NCBI RefSeq assembly: GCF_003790525.1
Contig: NZ_CP033635.1
Strand: one strand, 5' to 3'
DNA from: Escherichia coli
GTDB lineage: Bacteria; Pseudomonadota; Gammaproteobacteria; Enterobacterales; Enterobacteriaceae
DNA: 64,000 bases
Shown: piece by piece, positions 44,366 to 55,719 of the stretch
Position numbering within the stretch: the stretch's first letter is position 1
Layout: each line of letters begins with the position of its first letter
Notes under the pieces: model-generated
Seen by the model: the letters and a program-made list of their open reading frames with translations, nothing else
What the model was told of the DNA's origin: nothing
Database searches by the model: none
Position numbers and translations under genes: made by a program

Positions 44366-44391
44366 AATTAACTACACCATTAACTACACCG
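44366..44391 (+). repeat. left copy of 26-bp direct repeat AATTAACTACACCATTAACTACACCG (tandem 12-mer; candidate integrase arm-type sites)
   Basis: exact copy at 55567-55592; followed in both copies by a related ACAACGTG(G/A)AACAA motif. Confidence 0.6.
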
Positions 44392-45466
44392 TTCGGCGCA
44401 CTGTATGAAACAACGTGGAACAAATAGACACAAGCGGCAGGCTATACCGTTATCATTTTTCAGCTATCCGTCATGAAGCTGGTGGATGATCACGGATAAC
44501 CAGGCATCTACAGCGCCTTAAAAAGCTGAACCCGACAAACATTTCTGCTTATCGGGTCCGATCGCTCTTTCTACTCGTGGCAGATGAGTTTACTAGGAAG
44601 GGGGGAACATTGTATCAGGCTATCCCCTTTCTGTGCTGATTCGGCTGGTGAATGATCTACTTGGGGCACTACACTTTTCGGATAGTGCGGGTATCCGGTT
44701 TTCTGCCTCATCGAATTTTAAGCCTTCTGACGGCCTGTATATCATTTCCTGTGGAGTTGCCGCCCTGATAGCGAATACTGCGGCAGCATGTGATTTACCC
44801 CCCGTTCTGTTGATGTTTGATGTGGCTGGTTGATGTGCTGCCATGTTTTCCGCCAATGGTGGAAAAGCCCACCAGCGCAACGCAGGACGCATAAAACCAT
44901 TGCGATGACTCTGGACGCAAAACCACGTTTAACGATGTTTTGCACTGAACCAGAATACTGTTCGTTTTTGTCTCGATGTCCGTACGTATTACGTCCGCAC
45001 CTAATCCGGCATCATGCCCACCAGCGTAACGCATTTTTTTAATTTCGTGGCTGTGCGTCCACCAGCTACGCCGGAATGGGGTATTCCGTTTCAACGGAAC
45101 AGGTATGACGAACATAATCGCACCTTCTCCCGAAAACGGTGCGACCTGCATCATCGAAATGGTGATTCAGCTACTCGGCGATTTTCACCATTCAGAATCT
45201 GGCGGGTGAGTTATCCAGCTTCCACCAATGGGGGATTCTGGAACAATCAACGGGTTACGCCTTATCAGCAAAAAAGCACATCAACTGTAAAGGAAATCGT
45301 TATGGTTGCTGGTGGGCTGCGTCACCATCATGGTGATGATGCTGTCCAGTCAGCCGGAACGGTTGAACAGGGTGGCTATGGGTCACTCTGTTGTGCGTTA
45401 TTTGCGTGATCCTGGTACGGGGTGACTATCTTTCAGATAGTCGGTTGCCTGGTTACACGAAAAAAT

Positions 45467-45769
45467 TTACTTCCTGCGTTTATCCTGCTTTGTATGCCCG
45501 TGCTGAATGCCCCGCAGTGGATCTTCTTTTTTCAGGTCGATCCCCATGTCCGTTAGTGTTTTTGTGGCGGCGGTTCTTATGGCACAAATCAGGTCTCTTT
45601 CCGGTTCCCGGGTTATGGTTGCCTTCCGGATGCATGCCGTTCGTCGTTCCGTTACATACTGACGCGCTTCATCACTTGCCGCCTGTTTCAGTAACTCACC
45701 CCAGCGATTAGCCGCCCGTCGCCATAAACCTTTCGCTTCCAGTTCTTCCGCTTTGTCATCATGCACCAT
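45467..45769 (-). CDS. ANR-like small regulator, paralog 2 (start at MVHDD.. assumed)
   Basis: MVHDDKAEELEAKGLWRRAANRWGELL... parallels the protein at 49352-49624. Confidence 0.55.
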   Translation of the reverse strand: MVHDDKAEELEAKGLWRRAANRWGELLKQAASDEARQYVTERRTACIRKATITREPERDLICAIRTAATKTLTDMGIDLKKEDPLRGIQHGHTKQDKRRK

Positions 45770-45883
45770 AAGCATAATCCCATTGATACCTGTTAACTCT
45801 GAATGGTTGGTTTCTGTTCTTTTGATAATTTCCCGCATAGCTTATTGTATGACAGTACTGTCCCACAATAAGGAGTTGCACGC

Positions 45884-46174
45884 ATGAGAATGACTAGGCA
45901 CAAAAAACAGATTCTTGAACTCTACAAACCTGAGTATCGCGATTGGGTGCGGGTGGAGGCCGGAGATCCGCCTTTTGATGTTCGTGGTGTGACAGTGCTG
46001 CTCTATGGTTCCGAATATCGGCGATATCACATAGAGGCAACACGAAGGACGCTAAACGCTATGGTTCGTGATAAGTTGCTGGAGCGTGTGAAAGTCCGTG
46101 AGCCACGTTTTGATGTGCGTATTGGTGGCGATGGTGCGCATTGCACGGTAATCCGCTATGGCCTGGTAAGGTAA
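45884..46174 (+). CDS. hypothetical protein (96 aa), divergent from the ANR-like gene
   Basis: ORF with upstream AGGAG-like RBS; no recognisable family. Confidence 0.4.
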   Translation: MRMTRHKKQILELYKPEYRDWVRVEAGDPPFDVRGVTVLLYGSEYRRYHIEATRRTLNAMVRDKLLERVKVREPRFDVRIGGDGAHCTVIRYGLVR

Positions 46175-46276
46175 GCCATCGGGTAAATCAGATGATTAAA
46201 TCACCAGAATGTAAATTTACATTCTGCCAGCCACCAGCTACCCTCCTCAAAATTGAGGACCCTTTTTATCAACTGG

Positions 46277-46558
46277 TTACCGCCGCAACCGTTCCGGCTT
46301 CTTCCACTGATAAGTGTTTTTCGCGCTCTCCTGATACATCGCCACGCGTCGACGGTATGCCAGCAACTCTAGTACTCTGATTCGTATGTCGCGCATATCC
46401 ACGCCGTTAAGCTCAATACCATCACGGCGCATTACATCAGCAACAACACGCACATAATTTTCGGCGGTCACGCTGTCCGGCTGCGTGGCCTGTTCGTCAT
46501 GCTGCTGGCTGATTCCGGTAACGCGGCGGATTAATCCCAGTAGTTCGACTTCTGTCAT
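46277..46558 (-). CDS. hypothetical protein (93 aa) adjacent to cos copy A; start taken at internal Met
   Basis: MTEVELLGLIRRVTGI...; the longer ORF 46277..46756 would read through the cos site and is judged an artefact. Confidence 0.4.
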   Translation of the reverse strand: MTEVELLGLIRRVTGISQQHDEQATQPDSVTAENYVRVVADVMRRDGIELNGVDMRDIRIRVLELLAYRRRVAMYQESAKNTYQWKKPERLRR

Positions 46559-46570
46559 TGTGCCCCCATC

Positions 46571-46648
46571 GCTCTGATAGTCTGGTGTCGTCGGGTCCTT
46601 TCCGGCATGTGGACCCGTTACGGGGCGTCGACCTCGCGCGTTTTCACT
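46571..46648 (+). other. lambda-like cos site copy A (cosQ-cosN-left-arm homology); cosN-like 12-mer GGGCGTCGACCT at 46602-46613
   Basis: GGGTCCTTTCCGG...GTTACG GGGCGTCGACCT CGCGCGTTTTCACTATTTATGAAAATTTTTCGG closely matches the recalled lambda cos junction (lambda cosN GGGCGGCGACCT). Confidence 0.75.
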
Positions 46649-46664
46649 ATTTATGAAAATTTTT

Positions 46665-46775
46665 CGGGATCCATGTCCGGTTTCTCTGCAAGTTAACCAT
46701 ATGAAAAATATAAAAACATGCTTTCCATGAACCGGACATGCGCAAAAAACAGACACTAAAACCGGACATCGAACC
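46665..46775. repeat. three CCGGACAT motifs in alternating orientation next to cos copy A (candidate cosB-like terminase-docking sites)
   Basis: ATGTCCGG near 46671, CCGGACATG near 46729, CCGGACATC near 46763. Confidence 0.45.
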
Positions 46776-46837
46776 AGTTAACCGAAAGTGTGCACAAATC
46801 ACATTCATTGCTGCGAGTGATTAACAAGTTATCGGCT

Positions 46838-47272
46838 TTACTGTTCTGTATCGGCTGATTGCTCCATGCTGGCACGGCGAACGCTTACGGCATGACGCCA
46901 CCCAGCCAGAAAGCCAGCCATTTTATTTCGTGCCTTGCTCACATCTTCCGGTGAATAGCCGTAAATATGCAAACCTTCATCAAATCGATGTTCTGTTTCT
47001 TCACTGGAGTACTCGTCACGCTCAGATGAAAGCAGCCTCGCAAACATAATTTTTTCCAGCGCACTGGTTTCTACGTGATATCCGATGGTCTGAAGATGGC
47101 TTTTACCTGAATACCAAAGCAATGTATGCCCGATGTGATAACCGCCAGACTTTCCGCGATCCGCATTAAGATACGGCATCCCCTGTTTGGTCCATGCGCG
47201 AATAGTGGTTCTGTTAACCTTGAAATGTTCAGCTATTTCCTGCTGACTTACAAAACAAGCTTTATCAATCAT
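46838..47272 (-). CDS. Nu1-like small terminase-type DNA-binding protein (wHTH N-terminus, divergent C-terminus); possibly a packaging-redirection factor
   Basis: VSQQEIAEHFKVNRTTIRAWTKQGMPYL aligns with lambda Nu1 VNKKQLADIFGASIRTIQNWQEQGMPVL; 144 aa versus 181 aa for Nu1. Confidence 0.65.
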   Translation of the reverse strand: MIDKACFVSQQEIAEHFKVNRTTIRAWTKQGMPYLNADRGKSGGYHIGHTLLWYSGKSHLQTIGYHVETSALEKIMFARLLSSERDEYSSEETEHRFDEGLHIYGYSPEDVSKARNKMAGFLAGWRHAVSVRRASMEQSADTEQ

Positions 47273-47334
47273 AATGTTACCTTAACTGCATGGTTAAATA
47301 TCAATCAAGTGGTGGTGGTGTCACCTTCACGGAA

Positions 47335-47405
47335 AAACGTCATAAATAGCGAAAACGTGCGAGGTCGACGCCCCGTAACGGGTCCACATGCCGGAAAGGA
47401 CCCGC
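47335..47405 (-). other. lambda-like cos site copy B, inverted relative to copy A; cosN-like 12-mer (reverse complement) at 47362-47373
   Basis: reverse complement reads GGGTCCTTTCCGGCATGTGGACCCGTTACG GGGCGTCGACCT CGCACGTTTTCGCTATTTATGA; lies about 70 bp upstream of the terS-like start in the lambda cosN-to-Nu1 orientation. Confidence 0.7.
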
Positions 47406-47428
47406 AAAAAAAGCCGGATTTCTCCGGC
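47406..47428 (-). terminator. intrinsic terminator after the capsid/decoration genes
   Basis: minus strand GCCGGAGAAATCCGGC followed by U7. Confidence 0.65.
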
Positions 47429-47502
47429 CTTGTCTCAGATGGTTTTCAGTATGCGATAGATGTCGCCGTCATCGCCCTGGTTTGTGCCATCGTTCCCCCT
47501 GC

Positions 47503-47838
47503 TTATCGGGCCAGCGGCTGAACGGATACGCCGGAACCCGCAAAGGCGGCGCATTTTTTCGCATCGGTGTCGACGCTCTCAGGCCAGTTAACGGCGGCAA
47601 TATTGAATATCCCCGTCTTGTAACACTGTGCTGATTTCTGCTTTGACGTGTCCACAGGGTACGAGGTCAGATAAACAGCCTTGCCAGATTCCTTACCATC
47701 CCACGCCTTAAACTCGCCATTGTCTGCCAGCATCAGCGGGGTAAATTCCTGAATAACGCCAGCATCAGCGGCAAAATGTACCAGCGTCGTGGATACCTGT
47801 TGGCTGCCTGAAAATAACTCAATGTATGGAGCGTCCAT
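47503..47838 (-). CDS. lambda gpD-like head decoration protein
   Basis: TPLMLADNGEFKAWDG and AFAGSGVSV match lambda gpD TPLMLDTSSRKLVAWDG and AFAGTAISIV; 111 aa. Confidence 0.8.
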   Translation of the reverse strand: MDAPYIELFSGSQQVSTTLVHFAADAGVIQEFTPLMLADNGEFKAWDGKESGKAVYLTSYPVDTSKQKSAQCYKTGIFNIAAVNWPESVDTDAKKCAAFAGSGVSVQPLAR

Positions 47839-47849
47839 AGAATCCCCCG

Positions 47850-48905
47850 TTAAGCAATTTTGACGGTAACAAATTTGCGAATATCTGCCGGTACAGGCTG
47901 CGGTGCGCTGTGCGTCTGCACGTACTCAATCGCCGGATCGCCGTCCTCAATCCAGTTTTTCGGGTAGTACATGTTTTGCGTTGCGCCCGTTCTTACCGCT
48001 TCCTGATCCATAATCGCACCATATGCCACCAGCCCTTTATTGTTGGTGTTACCCAGGACCAGCAAATCAGGCTCAAGGAAATATTTTTCGGTCCCGTCGC
48101 TGTCAGTGTATTTGCCGGAATAGACGATAAGGGCCAGATCACCAAGATAGCCTTTAAAGCTCACCACTTCGCCCAGGTTTTTACAGGCCAGCTCGGCGGC
48201 GGATTCTGATCCACGGGAAAGATCGTACAGTTCACGGAATTTTTTAAAGCTGCGTAATGTGCGCCATACCTCACCGCCCATAATCATGACGTTGGCGGGG
48301 CAACCTGCCTGATCAGCATAAAGCTCGATGTCATAGATTGGGTCGTGCATGTCTTTATCCTGCTGGGACCATTTTTTACCACTGGCCTGCTGTATGATGC
48401 AGTTTTCCGGTATTTTCCAGTCGATTTCATAGCGTTCTATGCCTTCGCCCTCAATGATGTTTTTTCCGGTCGTTACCGCATTCACCGCCAGCCATTCCAC
48501 GCGCGCCTTAATGGCGTTTATCTGGCGGCGCATGTTGCCAGTAATCAGGCGCATACGGCGGTAAGTTGGATCGTTAAGCTGTGCCGGATCTTCTCCATCC
48601 ATGCGCATGATGGTCTTTGTTGGATCGATTTCGTGCTTTGGCTTCATGTAGCCTGGTTTAATCGTGCTGGTTTCGTACCCTTTATCGCGCTGGACCTGAC
48701 TACCCACCATAGGAGAACAGAACGCTGACATCGTAACCTCTTCAATGTCCAGGGTGTCCAGCATGATGTTTTGGGTGTTGAAGGTCGCCACGTTCGGGAA
48801 AAACAGCGTGGTAAACAGCGGACTAAATTTATATTCCGAAATATCCCCGCGATTCAGGTACGCGAAAAGCTGGTTAGTTGTAAGTGCCTTTGCTTTGCCT
48901 GTCAT
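47850..48905 (-). CDS. lambda gpE-like major capsid protein
   Basis: 351 aa; KPGYMKPKHEIDPTKT, DPTYRRMRLITGNMRR and YPKNWIEDGDPA...SAP...FVTVKIA align with lambda gpE along the whole length. Confidence 0.85.
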   Translation of the reverse strand: MTGKAKALTTNQLFAYLNRGDISEYKFSPLFTTLFFPNVATFNTQNIMLDTLDIEEVTMSAFCSPMVGSQVQRDKGYETSTIKPGYMKPKHEIDPTKTIMRMDGEDPAQLNDPTYRRMRLITGNMRRQINAIKARVEWLAVNAVTTGKNIIEGEGIERYEIDWKIPENCIIQQASGKKWSQQDKDMHDPIYDIELYADQAGCPANVMIMGGEVWRTLRSFKKFRELYDLSRGSESAAELACKNLGEVVSFKGYLGDLALIVYSGKYTDSDGTEKYFLEPDLLVLGNTNNKGLVAYGAIMDQEAVRTGATQNMYYPKNWIEDGDPAIEYVQTHSAPQPVPADIRKFVTVKIA

Positions 48906-49111
48906 TATTCACCTCCGTGAACCTGATTGATACCCAGCGCCGCACGCAAATAGGTGCGCACCTGCCAGCCTGTTGACGGCTCAACCATCGCCAGCGGATC
49001 AAGTCCTGCCGCAATGCCTGCTTTTACATTCTGCTGGTGGCGTTCCTTGAGCGCCTCCACGATGTCGGGGCTTATGTAGACCGTCACCCCGCCTTTTTTC
49101 TCTTCTGCCAT
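48905..49111 (-). CDS. hypothetical 68-aa protein translationally coupled (TAATG) to the capsid gene
   Basis: stop overlaps the gpE-like ATG; first gene of the capsid operon. Confidence 0.5.
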   Translation of the reverse strand: MAEEKKGGVTVYISPDIVEALKERHQQNVKAGIAAGLDPLAMVEPSTGWQVRTYLRAALGINQVHGGE

Positions 49112-49145
49112 AGTCAGAAATTCCTCTTTGACTTAAAAAATCATA

Positions 49146-49163
49146 ACTGGATGTTCATCCAGT
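49146..49163. promoter_or_regulatory. perfect palindrome ACTGGATG-TT-CATCCAGT upstream of the capsid operon (candidate operator/activator site)
   Basis: 8-bp arms with 2-bp spacer, about 35 bp upstream of the first operon ATG (49111). Confidence 0.4.
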
Positions 49164-49322
49164 CCTGATTATAATCATGATTGCATTTTGCGCAACAATA
49201 TTGAGTTACGTTGCAAATTATGAAATGATTATCCCGATCATGTGTGTCAGTTCACCATAAAAAACCTCGTATACAAAAGCCCCATAAGCCCCCTGTGACC
49301 TTATCGGGCTTTTTTTAGGCGT

Positions 49323-49344
49323 AAAAAAGCCGGATTGCTCCGGC
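49323..49344 (-). terminator. intrinsic terminator after the ANR-like gene (same stem family as 47406-47428)
   Basis: minus strand GCCGGAGCAATCCGGC followed by U6. Confidence 0.6.
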
Positions 49345-49351
49345 TGTGTGC

Positions 49352-49624
49352 TCACTTCTGCGGGTAGTTGCGCCATATTGCTTTGCCAATACCAGCTATC
49401 CCCATTTGTTTTTCAGTGCGATTAACTGACCTTTTCAGAGCGCCTAAATCATCCGGCGGCTCCGGTGGCCTCTGTGCCTTACGGATACATTCCGCGCGAC
49501 GCATTGCCACCTGTTCGCGCTCCTTGTCTGTCTCCACCAGCCTCATAACTTCACCCCATCGCGCCGCCGCCCTCCGGTAAAAGCCTTTTGCCTCGAGTTC
49601 CTCCGCTATGCGGTCATGTACCAT
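49352..49624 (-). CDS. ANR-like small regulator, paralog 1 (start at MVHDR.. assumed)
   Basis: MVHDRIAEELEAKGFYRRAAARWGEVM...; longer ORF start would overlap ssb. Confidence 0.55.
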   Translation of the reverse strand: MVHDRIAEELEAKGFYRRAAARWGEVMRLVETDKEREQVAMRRAECIRKAQRPPEPPDDLGALKRSVNRTEKQMGIAGIGKAIWRNYPQK

Positions 49625-49634
49625 CGTCACCCCC

Positions 49635-50045
49635 TCAGAACGGAATATCATCACCGTAAGGGTCATCGCCTCCCGCTGGTGGCTGATTACCCTGTGTGCC
49701 TGTGGTTTTGCGTCTGTTCCCGCCAGGACGTGCCGCACGGGCACTGATTACGCTGTCTGCAATAACCTGCCAGCCCTGCCGCGTTTCCCCGTTCTGTCCG
49801 GTCCACTGGCTGACCTGCATCGTGCCGGATACGCTGGCAACGTCGCCTTTTTGATGTTTAGCCAGAAAGTCGGCCTGTTTGCCAAATGCGATGACCGATA
49901 ACCATAACGTCGCCTGTCCGTCCTGTGCCTGGCCGCATGGTAAAGATACCGCCATACGCGCCAGCGTCATCGGTGTACCCTTACTGGTCTGTTTTACCTG
50001 CGGGTCGTCCACCAGCCGCCCGTAAGCTGCTATCTGTGCTGTCAT
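49635..50045 (-). CDS. single-stranded DNA-binding protein (SSB-like OB fold with acidic DDIPF tail)
   Basis: 136 aa; C-terminal ...DPYGDDIPF typical of SSB; Gly/Pro-rich linker. Confidence 0.75.
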   Translation of the reverse strand: MTAQIAAYGRLVDDPQVKQTSKGTPMTLARMAVSLPCGQAQDGQATLWLSVIAFGKQADFLAKHQKGDVASVSGTMQVSQWTGQNGETRQGWQVIADSVISARAARPGGNRRKTTGTQGNQPPAGGDDPYGDDIPF

Positions 50046-50659: not shown

Positions 50660-50870
50660 TCACCATCTCTCACTTTTACTACTCACTTTTTAAAGCGTCT
50701 CGCTTCGTCTCACTTGAGATTTTTGTGTTTTGTATGTGCATGTTTCATAAGTGTTTTTTCACTGCTCACTTTTGAGCATGTATACAGGTGAGAAAGTGAG
50801 TAATTGTGTTAATATTTTGTAAAAACCTCACCATTACTCACTTTTACTACTCACTTTTTACAGTGGTCCT
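50660..50870. repeat. iteron array (CTCACTT heptamers, two 24-bp direct repeats) - candidate replication origin of the element
   Basis: at least 6 direct and 2 inverted CTCACTT copies between 50669 and 50856; CTCACTTTTACTACTCACTTTTTA at 50669 and 50839; directly 3' of the primase-helicase gene. Confidence 0.6.
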
Positions 50871-52264
50871 ACATCATCACCATCAATGTAAATCACGGCG
50901 TCTTTTTCCAGTTTGGCTAACCATCGCCGCATATTTTTCACGTCATACCCAAGCCGTTTCATGTCATCACGTAACAGCGGGATCGTGCACTTGTCGCCGT
51001 TCTGTGTGCGTGAACGGATGCACCCCCATAGCGCGGTATGGTTTTCCGTCTTGTTGCCTGCCTCCTCGATGCGCTCCAGTTCAGCAGGGGCGCGGGGAAC
51101 GTCAATCACCACCATGGACACAATTTCTTCGCCATCTGTATCGGTGAACACCTCCACGCTTTTAAGGTCGTATGCACTCTCTTTTGGCTCCTCTGCGTCC
51201 TTCATCTTCGTACACGCCGCAACCAGTGCTGTAACGTCTGAATTTTCCCTGCTGATTCGGTACTCTGCATCAAGCGCGGCACGGAATGCACTGGAACCAC
51301 GCGCCCCCTTTGTTTCATCCTTGCCGGAATGGTGAACCACCAGCACCGTGGCCCCTGTGGCCTGCTTTATCGCGTCACACCCCTGGATAAATGCGCCCAT
51401 ATCACGGGAATCATTTTCATCATTCCCACCAAAGCAACGGGCCAGCGTGTCGATCACAATCAGCCGCACATTTTCGCCCGTTCTGCTCTTAACAAGTCCG
51501 GCAGTCCTGATAACCTGCTCCACATAGTCAGGCGATGCAGGGAAAACAGGCGCGTTAATGATGCACAAATCTGTAACCACCTTGTCGTGGGTTATCTCCC
51601 ACGCCTTAACGCGGCGTTTTACGCCCATGCTGCCTTCACCAGCGATATAGATAACCGCACCCTTACTTACCCTGCGGCCTCCCCATGCCATACCTGTGGC
51701 AACATGGCACGACCAGGAAATGGCGAGGAACGATTTATAAGAACCGCTGGCCCCGTAGGTGCTGCATAATGACTCAGCCGGAATAAGCCCCTTAATGACG
51801 TAGCTTTGCTGCGCATCGAATCCCTCAGAACCCCATGAGATGGGAAGTGTGATTTTTCGCTTTCCGCCATTCATGACCAGGCTTTCCCCTCTCTCCCATG
51901 TTTCCCGTAGTCGTGGTAGCTGGTCGCTCCAGTCCTCCAGCAGTTCGAAATTTTCAGAAAGTAGCCGCGCCTCCTGGACTCCGGCGATCGCCAGTTTTGT
52001 GGCAATGGTCAGCATCTGCATATCGTCCAGGTTTCCGGCGCGTATGACCTTTACCCTGTATCGTCCTTCATCAACAATCTGTAAGTTGTCCAGTTCGCTT
52101 AACTGATAACGGCCCAGATAAACCGGAGGGATGGGATCGCCTGCTTTTTTGGCCTGTGCAATCATGTAATGTTCTGCAAAGGAGTGAGCATTATCACCCG
52201 CAAAAATAACCGCCTCAGTGTGTTTATCTTTCGGTAACAGTTTTACGTTCGGTGCAAGTTTCAT
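50858..52264 (-). CDS. replication initiator: primase-associated N-domain + RecA-like/AAA helicase (pri-rep type)
   Basis: 468 aa; Walker A GASGSYKS, Walker B LIVIDTL, VLVVHHSGKD; C-terminal wH-like tail. Confidence 0.8.
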   Translation of the reverse strand: MKLAPNVKLLPKDKHTEAVIFAGDNAHSFAEHYMIAQAKKAGDPIPPVYLGRYQLSELDNLQIVDEGRYRVKVIRAGNLDDMQMLTIATKLAIAGVQEARLLSENFELLEDWSDQLPRLRETWERGESLVMNGGKRKITLPISWGSEGFDAQQSYVIKGLIPAESLCSTYGASGSYKSFLAISWSCHVATGMAWGGRRVSKGAVIYIAGEGSMGVKRRVKAWEITHDKVVTDLCIINAPVFPASPDYVEQVIRTAGLVKSRTGENVRLIVIDTLARCFGGNDENDSRDMGAFIQGCDAIKQATGATVLVVHHSGKDETKGARGSSAFRAALDAEYRISRENSDVTALVAACTKMKDAEEPKESAYDLKSVEVFTDTDGEEIVSMVVIDVPRAPAELERIEEAGNKTENHTALWGCIRSRTQNGDKCTIPLLRDDMKRLGYDVKNMRRWLAKLEKDAVIYIDGDDVGPL

Positions 52265-52548
52265 TTCTTACCCCCTGCGACCAGCATTTCACGGATTTTG
52301 CGGATATAACTTGCAGCACGTTTCTGATTAACGGCTTTACGATGGCCCACCAGCGTGAAATCACGCCGGAACTGATAAACAGGCATAACGCAGTCATATT
52401 CGTAGCCTTCACGGCGGTAAGTGATGCGACGTTCCTCCACGCCCTTAATCATTACCGTGCCGCCGTAGTTATCACGGAAAATATCGCCGGGACGGATTTC
52501 AGGACGAGCGGGGCCGCTGGCATTAACGCCAGAATTTTTATTTTTCAT
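52261..52548 (-). CDS. hypothetical protein (95 aa) translationally coupled to the replication gene
   Basis: stop overlaps the downstream start; basic protein. Confidence 0.45.
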   Translation of the reverse strand: MKNKNSGVNASGPARPEIRPGDIFRDNYGGTVMIKGVEERRITYRREGYEYDCVMPVYQFRRDFTLVGHRKAVNQKRAASYIRKIREMLVAGGKK

Positions 52549-52553
52549 GTTTT

Positions 52554-52781
52554 TTATTCTCCGGTGTGCTGTTCTTTATATCTGTCGTGAATTGCCATCA
52601 CTGTATTTAATTCATTAATAACAGCCGTTAATAGCGTACGCACGGCAGAAAACATCATTGAATCAGATTCATCGCCACTTTCCTGCACATCAATTAAATT
52701 AAGTAGTAATGCGTCCATTTCCTTTGCGCGGATTAATGCCTTTTCACAATGAAAAATAACACCAAAGGGTATTTTATTCAT
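52554..52781 (-). CDS. hypothetical protein (about 75 aa)
   Basis: ORF with internal Met start; first gene after the divergent operator region. Confidence 0.4.
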   Translation of the reverse strand: MNKIPFGVIFHCEKALIRAKEMDALLLNLIDVQESGDESDSMMFSAVRTLLTAVINELNTVMAIHDRYKEQHTGE

Positions 52782-53056
52782 GACTCCCCTCCTGACGGAT
52801 ACGGGCGGCGAATACAGCGACACAACCGGACGGGCAACGGTTACGCGCTTCGCGTTCCGTCCAGGCGGTCACGTGGATAATTTGAGATTCTCCGGCACTC
52901 AGTGCCAGAAAACGCCACACAAAGGCGGTTTGTGTGTGCGCTAGTCGTGGGGTATGCTGTGTTCCAGCCATAATCGTTACTCCTGTTAACGGTTTGGTTA
53001 GACGCCCTGCATGTGTTACAGCACTGCGGGGCGTTGTCTTTTTAACGGCTTTCGTG

Positions 53057-53104
53057 ATAGGGTGTACACCTATCAAGCAAAAACATAACGCTATAGGTGT
53101 ACAC
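53057..53104. promoter_or_regulatory. two TAGG(G)TGTACAC palindromic operator-like sites immediately upstream of the RHH gene
   Basis: ATAGGGTGTACACCTAT at 53057-53073 and ATAGGTGTACAC at 53093-53104, ending at the ATG. Confidence 0.6.
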
Positions 53105-53299
53105 ATGTCAACAGTTATTAAGCGAGATAAAAAACCAAAGGGAACAGGAAAAGCCCCCCCATTCCATATGCGAATAGCTCCAGAACTGAAAGAGCAGTTT
53201 GATAATGAGGCCAGCAATGATGGGGTAAGCCTAGCCAACTGGCTTAAAGAGTTGGGGCGCGCCGAACTAAAGCGACGCGGCATTGAACCTAAAGGCTGA
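53105..53299 (+). CDS. ribbon-helix-helix (CopG/Arc-like) DNA-binding protein, 64 aa
   Basis: beta-strand/helix pattern PFHMRIAPELKEQF...SLANWLKELGRAEL typical of RHH regulators/antitoxins. Confidence 0.6.
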   Translation: MSTVIKRDKKPKGTGKAPPFHMRIAPELKEQFDNEASNDGVSLANWLKELGRAELKRRGIEPKG

Positions 53300-53302
53300 T
53301 GT

Positions 53303-53428
53303 ATGACTGAAAAGCAGACCGATAACAAACTTTCTCTACCAGAGAATAAACCAGCAGGCTTCTTACCAAGAAAAATCCTTGATGAGATCAAACGCCGCCA
53401 GCGCCGCAAGGCCAAAGAGCAGGAATAG
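53303..53428 (+). CDS. small basic ORF (41 aa) immediately downstream of the RHH gene
   Basis: ATG 4 nt after the RHH stop; product MTEKQTDNKLSLPENKPAGFLPRKILDEIKRRQRRKAKEQE. Confidence 0.3.
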   Translation: MTEKQTDNKLSLPENKPAGFLPRKILDEIKRRQRRKAKEQE

Positions 53429-53752
53429 CCCACCAGCAAGCCAGCACACTGATCACATTGGCCACCGTGACAGGTGGCCTTTTCTTTGCCCGTTATCCGG
53501 CAATTGTGGCGCTTCGCCACACGGTTGATATAATTCCCCTGCTCAGATTCATTTTTTGCGCGGCAGGTAAATTGTTCAGAAAGGCGGCTCCTTATCGGGG
53601 CCGCTTTTTTTATGTCTGAAAAACCGCGATTTTGTTGTTTTTCAGTTTCACCAGGCCGAACGAAGCCCCGCCCATGTTCGGGCGTATATCCAGTCTTCAT
53701 GGTTAAATCTCTGTATTAGTGGATGGGTGGCGGCTGTGTGCCGCCAGTCTTT

Positions 53753-53941
53753 TTAGTGAACTGCCTCGCAGCTTTCCTTCCATGCCAGAACTTCGGATAA
53801 AGACCAGCCAACGGAACGACCGCCCAGCTTACGCCGTGATGGGAATTGTCCGGCCTTTTCCAGGCGGTAGCGGCATGAGCGGCTAAGGCCTGTTAGCTTT
53901 TCGCATTCTTTTTCACGTATAAAGCGATCAGTGCTTAACAC
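53753..53941 (-). CDS. alpA: AlpA/Vis-family phage regulatory protein (excisionase-like)
   Basis: 62 aa; ...IREKECEKLTGLSRSCRYRLEKAGQFPSRRKLGGRSVGW... typical AlpA fold signature. Confidence 0.8.
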   Translation of the reverse strand: MLSTDRFIREKECEKLTGLSRSCRYRLEKAGQFPSRRKLGGRSVGWSLSEVLAWKESCEAVH

Positions 53942-54315: not shown

Positions 54316-55566
54316 TTATTTTCTTCTGGCTACTGGTAGCGTGGTTACGTTTTCATGTGCTCCCGCCAGTATCTCCAACCGCTCCACCCACATATCCAGC
54401 GCATTGCGTTTCGCATCCAGATAACGGGAATGATTATAAACTCGCTGCATTCCTGGCATCTGGTGGCCTGTAAGCTGCTCCACGACGTGAGGATCCACGC
54501 CTAAATCGTTCAGCATCGTTGTAAAGGTGCGCCGGATGTCATGCAGTGACCATTGAGGGTGTTTTAGCCTCCTGTGCGCTAATCTGCCGTACTGCGATAC
54601 GCTGGCCTCCTGTTTCACTTCCCCCAGTAATAAGCCCGTGTGCCTGTTCTGCTCCACCAGCCGCGTGACGAACGGCAGGATCGCTTCCGGTATGGGCCGG
54701 AATATTGCGACCTTCGTTTTGCTGTGCTCCTTCGGAACGGTCCAGAGCATTTCCGTGAAATCCCACTCCCCGATCTCCGATAACCTCAGTTCTACCGTCC
54801 TGGCTCCGAAGACAATCAGGAGGCGGATTAGTGCGACGTAGTAAGGGGAAAATATTTTTTTGTCCAGTGCCTGCAATAATTCGCCCAGTTCTTTGGTGCT
54901 TAAGACACGTTCGCTTATATCCGGTTTTTTCCCAACGTCCGCCACGTTCAGATCGTCCAGAACGTTGCTGATTGCATAGCGCCGCCTCCGGCAAAACTTA
55001 AGCGCCTGTTTGCACGCCTGTAGCACGAATCCGGCAGTAACAGGCGTTCGCTTTGCCACCCGATCAAAACAGGCCAGCCAGTGCCGTAGCTCGCATTTAT
55101 CCAGCGGCATAGCACCAATGTGCTGTATTACGTGATTATTAAGTCGCCTTTTCAGGGCGATATAATCCACGCGGTTTTCCTTTACGTAAGACTCAAGCCA
55201 GTAGGTGAGCGCATCTCCAACCGTTACAGGCTTTAACGCTTCCTGCATGGTGTAATTCATCTCATGACGTGGATTTTTCCCCTCAGCCAGCCATGCGCGA
55301 CACTGGGCGGCTTTTTCCCTGGCTGATTTCAGGCTCAGATCAGGATAATTTCCCAGCTTAATACGTTCCGGTCGTGTCTCTCTTCCCGTTCCGGCCCTGT
55401 AAGTGAAATACCAGGTTAAAAGGCCGCTGGTTGAATGCCTGACGCTCAGATTTCCACCGTCATTAAGAAAGGCTGTTTTTTGGGCGGGTGTGCCGTTGAT
55501 TTTCCTTAGCTGTGTATCGCTCAGCTTGTTAAGTGCTCTGGTCATAATTTTGAATCCGGTCATCAC
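54316..55566 (-). CDS. int: tyrosine site-specific integrase (P4-type)
   Basis: 416 aa; C-terminal catalytic region with ...HDIRRTF... and ...LTGHQMPGMQRVYNH... (R..H..R..Y). Confidence 0.88.
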   Translation of the reverse strand: MMTGFKIMTRALNKLSDTQLRKINGTPAQKTAFLNDGGNLSVRHSTSGLLTWYFTYRAGTGRETRPERIKLGNYPDLSLKSAREKAAQCRAWLAEGKNPRHEMNYTMQEALKPVTVGDALTYWLESYVKENRVDYIALKRRLNNHVIQHIGAMPLDKCELRHWLACFDRVAKRTPVTAGFVLQACKQALKFCRRRRYAISNVLDDLNVADVGKKPDISERVLSTKELGELLQALDKKIFSPYYVALIRLLIVFGARTVELRLSEIGEWDFTEMLWTVPKEHSKTKVAIFRPIPEAILPFVTRLVEQNRHTGLLLGEVKQEASVSQYGRLAHRRLKHPQWSLHDIRRTFTTMLNDLGVDPHVVEQLTGHQMPGMQRVYNHSRYLDAKRNALDMWVERLEILAGAHENVTTLPVARRK

Positions 55567-55592
55567 AATTAACTACACCATTAACTACACCG
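55567..55592 (+). repeat. right copy of the 26-bp direct repeat AATTAACTACACCATTAACTACACCG
   Basis: exact copy of 44366-44391, directly upstream of the int start codon. Confidence 0.6.
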
Positions 55593-55719
55593 ATCGTTGC
55601 ACAAAGGGCTACAACGTGAAACAAGCTGGAACAAGAAAAATCACAAATTTGTTTATAATCAAAAACATAATGCACAACCTGAAACATTATGAAACGGCAA
55701 AAAACACTAATTGATAAAG

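Follow-up and report, generated by a model that had tools for sequence, protein, structure and literature searches.

A probable RppA allele between convergent cos sites in a tqsA-borne PICI of Escherichia coli

The window, by which we mean the whole stretch of 64,000 nucleotides analysed here, contains an open reading frame at 46838..47272 on the minus strand that starts with ATG, comprises 144 codons and encodes a protein of 144 aa; we refer to it as rpp. The gene lies in an island of 11.2 kb with a direct repeat at either end (44366-44434 and 55567-55635). Its insertion has split tqsA, two partial pseudogene pieces of which flank the island in the annotation of E. coli PKF11, and the PKF11 chromosome is 100% identical to positions 45000-49500 of the window. 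The features of the locus are as follows.

44366..44434, plus strand: att repeat at the rpp-proximal end (direct repeat D1, shared core AATTAACTACACCATTAACTACACCG)
46277..46558, minus strand: small conserved ORF of 93 aa downstream of cos2, homologue of CFT073 C_RS07030, a CDS in the annotations of both PKF11 and CFT073 (phrog_1561, unknown function, E=1.4e-54)
46592..46669, plus strand: cos2 (cosQ and cosN), one arm of inverted repeat I1, matching the cosN pattern
46838..47272, minus strand: rpp
47273..47340, minus strand: cosB of cos1, putative target of an Rpp-TerS complex, placed by alignment of positions +30..+100
47327..47404, minus strand: cos1 (cosQ and cosN), lambda-like, the other arm of I1, placed by the cosN pattern and by alignment with lambda and CFT073
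47503-47838, minus strand: homologue of the gpD-type head decoration protein (phrog_49, E=2.1e-26)
47850-48905, minus strand: homologue of the lambda gpE-type major capsid protein (phrog_29, major head protein, E=1.7e-108)
48905-49111, minus strand: small ORF upstream of the capsid gene (phrog_3255, E=8.7e-36)
49352-49624, minus strand: PerC-like regulator (PKF11 island annotation, PHROG/NCBIfam matches)
49635-50045, minus strand: SSB (same sources)
50858-52264, minus strand: RepA-family helicase (same sources)
52261-52548, minus strand: DUF4222 protein (same sources)
about 52774-52968, minus strand: Icd-like cell-division inhibitor (PHROG/NCBIfam matches)
53753-53941, minus strand: AlpA (62/62 residues identical to the PKF11 AlpA-family CDS)
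within 54316-55566, minus strand: tyrosine integrase (PKF11 island annotation, PHROG/NCBIfam matches)
55567..55635, plus strand: att repeat at the integrase end (direct repeat D1)

Read leftward from the integrase end, the order is integrase, AlpA, Icd-like protein, DUF4222 protein, RepA helicase, SSB and PerC-like regulator, followed by the small ORF, the gpE-type capsid gene, the gpD-type decoration gene, rpp and the small conserved ORF. Neither the PKF11 annotation nor the PHROG matches place a TerL, portal, tail or lysis gene in the island. In its size, its integrase, AlpA and replication module, its att repeats and its freedom from lysis, tail and terminase genes, the island conforms to a PICI of the EcCICFT073 type. 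In Megablast the region proved colinear with EcCICFT073, with ~94% for the capsid-rpp module, and about 1,930 genomes carry some part of the island backbone. A reading frame of 308 codons at 52774-53700 on the minus strand was dismissed as spurious read-through for most of its length; a real gene, that of the Icd-like protein, is confined to the final ~64 codons.

Several further observations concern the remainder of the island. The capsid and decoration homologues are present though the island has no gene for a portal, a protease or a terminase. Directly after the decoration gene come a GC-rich hairpin with a T-run (47407-47433, minus strand) and then cos1. The promoter and terminator scan gave counts no higher than in shuffled sequence. 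At the other end, an extra ~1.9 kb (44435-46270) separates the last conserved island ORF from the att repeat, and holds a second PerC-like ORF (45467-45838, minus strand) and three small hypothetical ORFs. This segment is absent from EcCICFT073, is contiguous with the rest of the island in only 3 of 5,426 genomes, and gave no defence matches in PADLOC; it could represent accessory or cargo DNA or the remnant of another island. The window holds no Nu1-type helper prophage; it extends from the marC/sotB region as far as rstA, and the PICI is the only insert. In PKF11, some 20 kb away from the island, the Qin locus is occupied by a lambdoid prophage (L003 30057-32692) that the strain of the window lacks. 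The TerS of that prophage is of the DUF1441 type, without detectable similarity to Nu1, and the prophage is therefore unlikely as a target of Rpp.

What is the product of rpp? The identical CDS of PKF11 (WP_032354311.1) is a 'hypothetical protein' in RefSeq. The protein is identical at 138 of 144 residues (96%), with 144/144 residues covered, to c1503 of E. coli CFT073 (C_RS07025, 144 aa), which occupies the same position. The product of c1503 is RppA ('redirecting phage packaging'), of 144 residues (Fillol-Salom et al. 2019, Mol Cell 75:1020, PMC6739421), and its sequence is printed with both EcCICFT073 cos sites, c1503 being named, in supplementary Figure S1 of that paper (PMC6739421). Among PDB sequences, phmmer returned a single strong match, RppC (6HLK, 6HN7; E=4.3e-32), which covers residues 2-125 and in which residues 65-125 align with alpha4-alpha6 of RppC. 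A search of 5.8 billion protein sequences yielded only 17 clusters, all from Enterobacteriaceae and bearing names such as 'hypothetical protein' or 'prophage protein', none of them functional. One of these, P0003 (146 aa), corresponds to RppB; the RppB-type proteins, which include the VG35A2 and ETEC1732 alleles, are 83% identical to the window protein. Of 5,426 complete E. coli genomes, 109 carry RppA- or RppB-type DNA, in every case in the chromosome and annotated as 'hypothetical protein'. Scans of Rpp and its small neighbours with Pfam, NCBIfam and PADLOC produced sub-threshold HTH matches or nothing, and these libraries hold no model for the family. From this level of identity, we consider it very probable that the window gene is an RppA allele of an EcCICFT073-like PICI and works by the Rpp packaging-redirection mechanism. 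The protein is thus already known: since 2019 it has received a name, undergone mutagenesis and, in the form of RppC, yielded crystal structures, and its near-identity to the characterised RppA makes the finding real but ordinary.

The function of RppA has been established in some detail. When the island genes downstream of ori were cloned singly, none but c1503 blocked lambda (PMC6739421). Expression of RppA blocks lambda and phi80, not HK97, and leaves phage replication and lysis unaffected; the mutations by which phages escape the block map to TerS (V3I, A55V, E65K and others) (PMC6739421). Binding of TerS by RppA and RppC has been shown both by two-hybrid assay and by pull-down, each of the two proteins homodimerises, and island transfer requires both RppA and the Rpp-TerS interaction (PMC6739421). 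Deletion of the helper terS abolishes transfer of EcCICFT073, and TerS point mutants that do not bind Rpp also lose island transfer (PMC6739421, PMC6092414). RppC consists of an N-terminal winged-HTH domain (residues 1-64), which superimposes on the Nu1 DNA-binding domain with 1.6 Å rmsd, and of a C-terminal domain in which alpha4-alpha6 mediate dimerisation, alpha6 forming a coiled coil (PMC6739421). In the Rpp-TerS complex, the position of the second TerS domain is filled by the DNA-binding domain of Rpp, and TerS alpha3 lies against Rpp alpha6 (PMC6739421). L51D abolishes TerS binding and F121R dimerisation; R21A/T22A retains interference and loses cos1 stimulation (PMC6739421). The earlier note had linked the window protein to the redirection of packaging by satellites and had suggested interference with helper packaging. 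Both ideas were right: the first matches RppA and RppC, and the second describes what RppA, its 138/144-identical relative, does experimentally to the packaging of lambda and phi80 (PMC6739421).

We noted that the RppA residues tested by mutagenesis, R21, T22, L51 and F121, are all present at the same positions in the window protein, and that the proposed DNA-contact residues R25, K29 and K41 are also kept. Across the 17 homologues, R21, T22 and F121 are invariant, as are most of the tested and contact residues. The protein would divide into two parts.

Residues ~1-64: predicted winged-HTH DNA-binding domain, mimicking the TerS domain
Residues ~65-144: predicted helical domain for dimerisation and TerS contact

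The AlphaFold2 model, built from the 17-sequence alignment, was too poor for structural conclusions (pLDDT 50.7, pTM 0.34). Its low-confidence helices (10-16, 21-29, 48-62, 71-84, 91-103 and 108-143) agree in order with alpha1-alpha6 of RppC, and in a Foldseek search of the PDB with this poor model, 6HLK and 6HN7_A were the sole significant matches (40% identity, TM about 0.32, E about 3e-5). With a TM of about 0.32 the Foldseek match is largely driven by sequence, and is therefore weak corroboration; the evidence proper for the predicted Rpp fold is the sequence match to the crystal structures.

How might this allele differ from RppA? Seven nucleotide differences separate it from rppA of CFT073, six nonsynonymous and one synonymous, and the substitutions (CFT073 residue first) are S54Y, R59H, E61Q, A62T, R64G and Q102H. 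Five of the six fall within 11 codons, residues 54-64 (window 47081-47113), in helix alpha3 just past the L51 patch. This clustering is non-random (simulation, P about 3e-4), and codons 51-67 have 0 synonymous changes. Because the five changes lie beside the L51 interface patch, affinity or helper range could differ from that of RppA. It is improbable, in our judgement, that the altered alpha3 patch (Y54, H59, Q61, T62, G64) has gone so far as to change or abolish the TerS partner of this RppA-family protein, leaving it inactive against lambda and phi80 or acting on another helper TerS. Such a shift would fit the clustering itself and the alignment of residue 54 (Tyr) with Tyr50 of Nu1, a TerS interface residue between DNA-binding domains (PMC6739421). 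It would also fit the variant sequence YSGKSHLQTIG being the representative of a 229-member cluster (P0001), which marks it as a circulating allele. However, L51 and F121 are kept, and functional Rpps conserve the interface residues only partly: RppB, at 83% identity, and RppC, at 44%, remain able to block both lambda and phi80 (PMC6739421). Nor is the gene-wide dN/dS significantly above neutral, six nonsynonymous changes out of seven being what neutrality predicts (P=0.54). Positive selection on rpp is accordingly not supported; the clustering alone is non-random, and may equally represent a recombination patch. GKSHL also occurs in RppB-like alleles, with which the alpha3 patch may have a small recombination tract in common. 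Relative to RppB-type alleles, pN/pS is about 0.25, which indicates purifying selection on rpp overall. We regard as rather unlikely the further idea that the cluster arose through an arms race with the TerS of helpers and alters which TerS variants Rpp captures; Tyr54, in line with Tyr50 of Nu1, might then strengthen binding, for instance, or overcome TerS escape mutants. A possible change in helper TerS specificity is nevertheless the single loose thread of the analysis.

The earlier note had also described a Nu1-like N-terminal DNA-binding domain joined to a C-terminal half unlike that of Nu1, in a protein of 144 aa as against 181 aa. The lengths are correct and both halves of the description hold, the likeness extending over only ~50 residues. 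BLASTP aligned residues 8-55 with residues 3-51 of lambda Nu1 (31% identity over 49 residues, pairwise E=7e-7) and gave no further alignment to Nu1, including its C-terminal TerL-binding region. The PHROG family phrog_57, 'terminase small subunit', matched residues 7-54 only (E=1.1e-8), and by phmmer the Nu1 DNA-binding domains 1J9I, 7LW0 and 6HN7_B appeared at E about 0.014-0.025. The Pfam model Phage_Nu1 (PF07471) remained below threshold (E=0.009, score 16, residues 8-56, model positions 3-52 of 164), and a full-length match passing the threshold, as would be expected of a member of the Nu1 family, was not obtained. No TerS matched residues ~58-144. In a tblastn search with the whole protein, 50,697 phage records yielded nothing at E<=0.01, which rules out an ordinary phage TerS; full-length likeness to such a protein, which the earlier note named as counter-evidence, was not seen.

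Could the protein still be a genuine TerS of the island, a shortened Nu1-type protein that binds cos and recruits TerL directly in place of the phage TerS? The N-terminal winged-HTH, the lambda-like order cosQ-cosN-cosB-gene and the 'terminase small subunit' annotations in some related islands would all be explained. We consider this very unlikely, because TerS similarity ends at residue ~57 and does not include the Nu1 TerL-binding region, because no phage record holds a homologue, because the island has no TerL gene, and because transfer with the 96%-identical RppA depends on the helper terS and on a TerS able to bind Rpp (PMC6739421, PMC6092414). More remote still is the idea that rpp encodes an ordinary transcription regulator for the island, with an HTH of the MerR/excisionase type and no packaging role, which would account for the weak, sub-threshold HTH_17, MerR_1 and BldC matches, for MerR-family structures among the non-significant Foldseek matches and for the MerR-like structure of the RppC DNA-binding domain (PMC6739421), but none of the HTH matches reaches its family threshold or extends beyond the ~25-residue HTH, Rpp is what the protein matches over its full length, and RppA hits packaging rather than replication or lysis, with escape mutations in terS (PMC6739421). 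An RppA allele remains the reading that we prefer.

The DNA that surrounds rpp closely resembles that of EcCICFT073. A 78-nt inverted repeat, I1 (91% complementary), flanks the gene, and both of its arms are lambda-like cosQ/cosN sequences (GGGCGTCGACCT...) that face it; a cosN pattern search of the window matched both arms, with 0 matches expected by chance. First, cos1 lies directly upstream of rpp in the same orientation, with base 1 of the left cohesive end GGGCGTCGACCT at 47373. The rpp ATG is at bp 102 from this base, and bp 102 is the start of PICI-C rpp according to Murialdo & Feiss (PMC9026076). The sequence matches 'EcCICFT073 cos1' of Fig. S1A (PMC6739421 supplement), which reads on into ATGATTGATAAA, at the rpp start codon. 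From -60 to +30 (cosQ-cosN) cos1 is identical to lambda at 61 of 90 positions; from +30 to +100 it is identical to CFT073 cos1 at 69 of 70 and to lambda cosB at 24 of 70, and is thus unrelated to the latter. The R3-PICI proposed by Murialdo & Feiss (PMC9026076), bp 48-65, corresponds to AGGTGACACCACCACCAC at 47309-47326. Second, cos2 lies downstream of rpp, convergent with cos1, with base 1 of the cohesive end at 46623 and its own cosB-like flank to about 46830. Its +30..+100 region is identical to that of CFT073 cos2 at 70 of 70 positions and to lambda cosB at 27 of 70, and it matches 'EcCICFT073 cos2' (PMC6739421 supplement). RppA does not promote cos2, and transfer can do without it (PMC6739421, PMC6092414). 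Third, eight RppA-type loci were compared, and each of them has the convergent pair (the window, CFT073, 042, EPSSH018, 2014C-3307, 2017C-4173W12, NCTC86 and Ch1). We had entertained the inverted cos-like repeat as a novelty and rejected this, the repeat being the published cos1/cos2 pair of EcCICFT073.

The cosB box GACACCACCACCACTTGATT (putative R3-PICI) and cosQ are also kept upstream of two RppB-type genes (L011 and L012, ~936-1050), where the cosN core differs from the lambda type, e.g. GGGGCGGCAGACGCGCAAAAAAGC. Conservation of the box beside a different cosN core agrees with a role as the Rpp recognition element. It further suggests that some islands may share Rpp recognition and yet suit helpers with a different cohesive end.

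Because R21, T22, R25, K29, K41, L51 and F121 are present and the cosB of cos1 is intact, we assign the RppA/RppC mechanism to this allele with high confidence. Binding of TerS, the block to helper packaging and the need for Rpp in island transfer are attributed to it by virtue of its 96% identity to RppA. The proposed course of events would begin with induction of a lambda-like cos helper phage, upon which the island would excise and replicate. Rpp would form a homodimer through its C-terminal helices, with the alpha6 coiled coil and the essential F121, and each protomer would take one monomer of the helper TerS (Nu1). The N-terminal winged-HTH of Rpp would replace the second TerS DNA-binding domain by way of the L51 patch, and alpha6 would pack on an extended TerS alpha3. 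The resulting hybrid DNA-binding unit would be blind to the R sites of the phage cosB, leaving phage DNA unpackaged, and helix alpha2 of Rpp (R21/T22) would provide the unit with a putative means of recognising the island cosB beside cos1. Transfer of cos1 plasmids is promoted by RppA, and cosB swaps have shown the cosB of cos1 to be the only one that the Rpp-TerS complex recognises (PMC6739421). Rpp has no recognisable TerL-binding domain, and it has been hypothesised that TerS supplies TerL (PMC9026076); TerS, with its TerL-binding tail, might thus bring TerL to the lambda-like cosN of the island, which would then be packaged in helper capsids. The suggestion in the earlier note that the protein recruits a heterologous TerL is therefore wrong in detail, as the partner is the helper TerS (Nu1), which is thought to bring TerL along (PMC9026076). 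Recruitment and poisoning, posed there as alternatives, would both occur, one protein blocking the phage and being needed for packaging of the island.

The value of these results lies mainly in annotation, the gene being a 'hypothetical protein' in RefSeq in every genome examined. Once rpp is recognised, the island can be given its proper annotation, that of a cos-type PICI parasitic on lambda-like phages.

Among known systems, the closest is RppA of EcCICFT073. Both proteins have 144 aa, with 138/144 residues identical and all tested residues kept, both genes lie between convergent cos1 and cos2 sites whose cosB regions are 69/70 and 70/70 identical, and the PICI gene order is common to both. 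The islands themselves differ in several respects. EcCICFT073 adjoins phoQ, whereas the window island lies in tqsA; the former has a primase replication module and the latter a RepA-type helicase; and the extra ~1.9 kb with the second PerC-like gene at the rpp-proximal end has no counterpart in EcCICFT073. Conversely, the 137-aa C_RS07020 between the decoration gene and cos1 of EcCICFT073 is missing from the window island (47404-47503). In another strain C_RS07020 is annotated as 'phage head-tail connector protein'.

RppB is 83% identical and has the cosB box GACACCACCACCACTTGATT upstream, but is 146 aa long, and in the genes examined its cosN core is not of the lambda type found in the window. 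RppC of EcCIEC2733.1 (6HLK; 6HN7 with lambda TerS 1-98) can be aligned over residues 2-125 (E=4e-32), has the same order alpha1-alpha6 as the helices predicted here, and shares R21, T22, R25, K29, K41 and L51. In contrast, it has 153 aa and about 40-50% identity, R30 where the window protein has Q30, and an alpha6 dimer interface that differs; RppA does not form heterodimers with RppC, whose binding to lambda TerS is the tighter of the two (PMC6739421). With lambda gpNu1 the window protein shares the N-terminal winged-HTH and the layout of cos followed by the gene. It differs in its DNA-recognition-helix residues and in being without the oligomerisation and TerL-binding C-terminal half; by analogy with its relatives, it would bind TerS rather than serve as TerS. 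The SaPIs (TerS and Ppi) and P4 (Sid/Psu) are comparable in that satellite proteins divert the packaging or capsid machinery of the helper and interfere with it. SaPIs use two proteins, their own TerS and Ppi, which blocks the phage TerS, and P4 remodels capsid size, whereas Rpp is one protein that does both jobs by heterodimerising with the helper TerS (PMC6739421).
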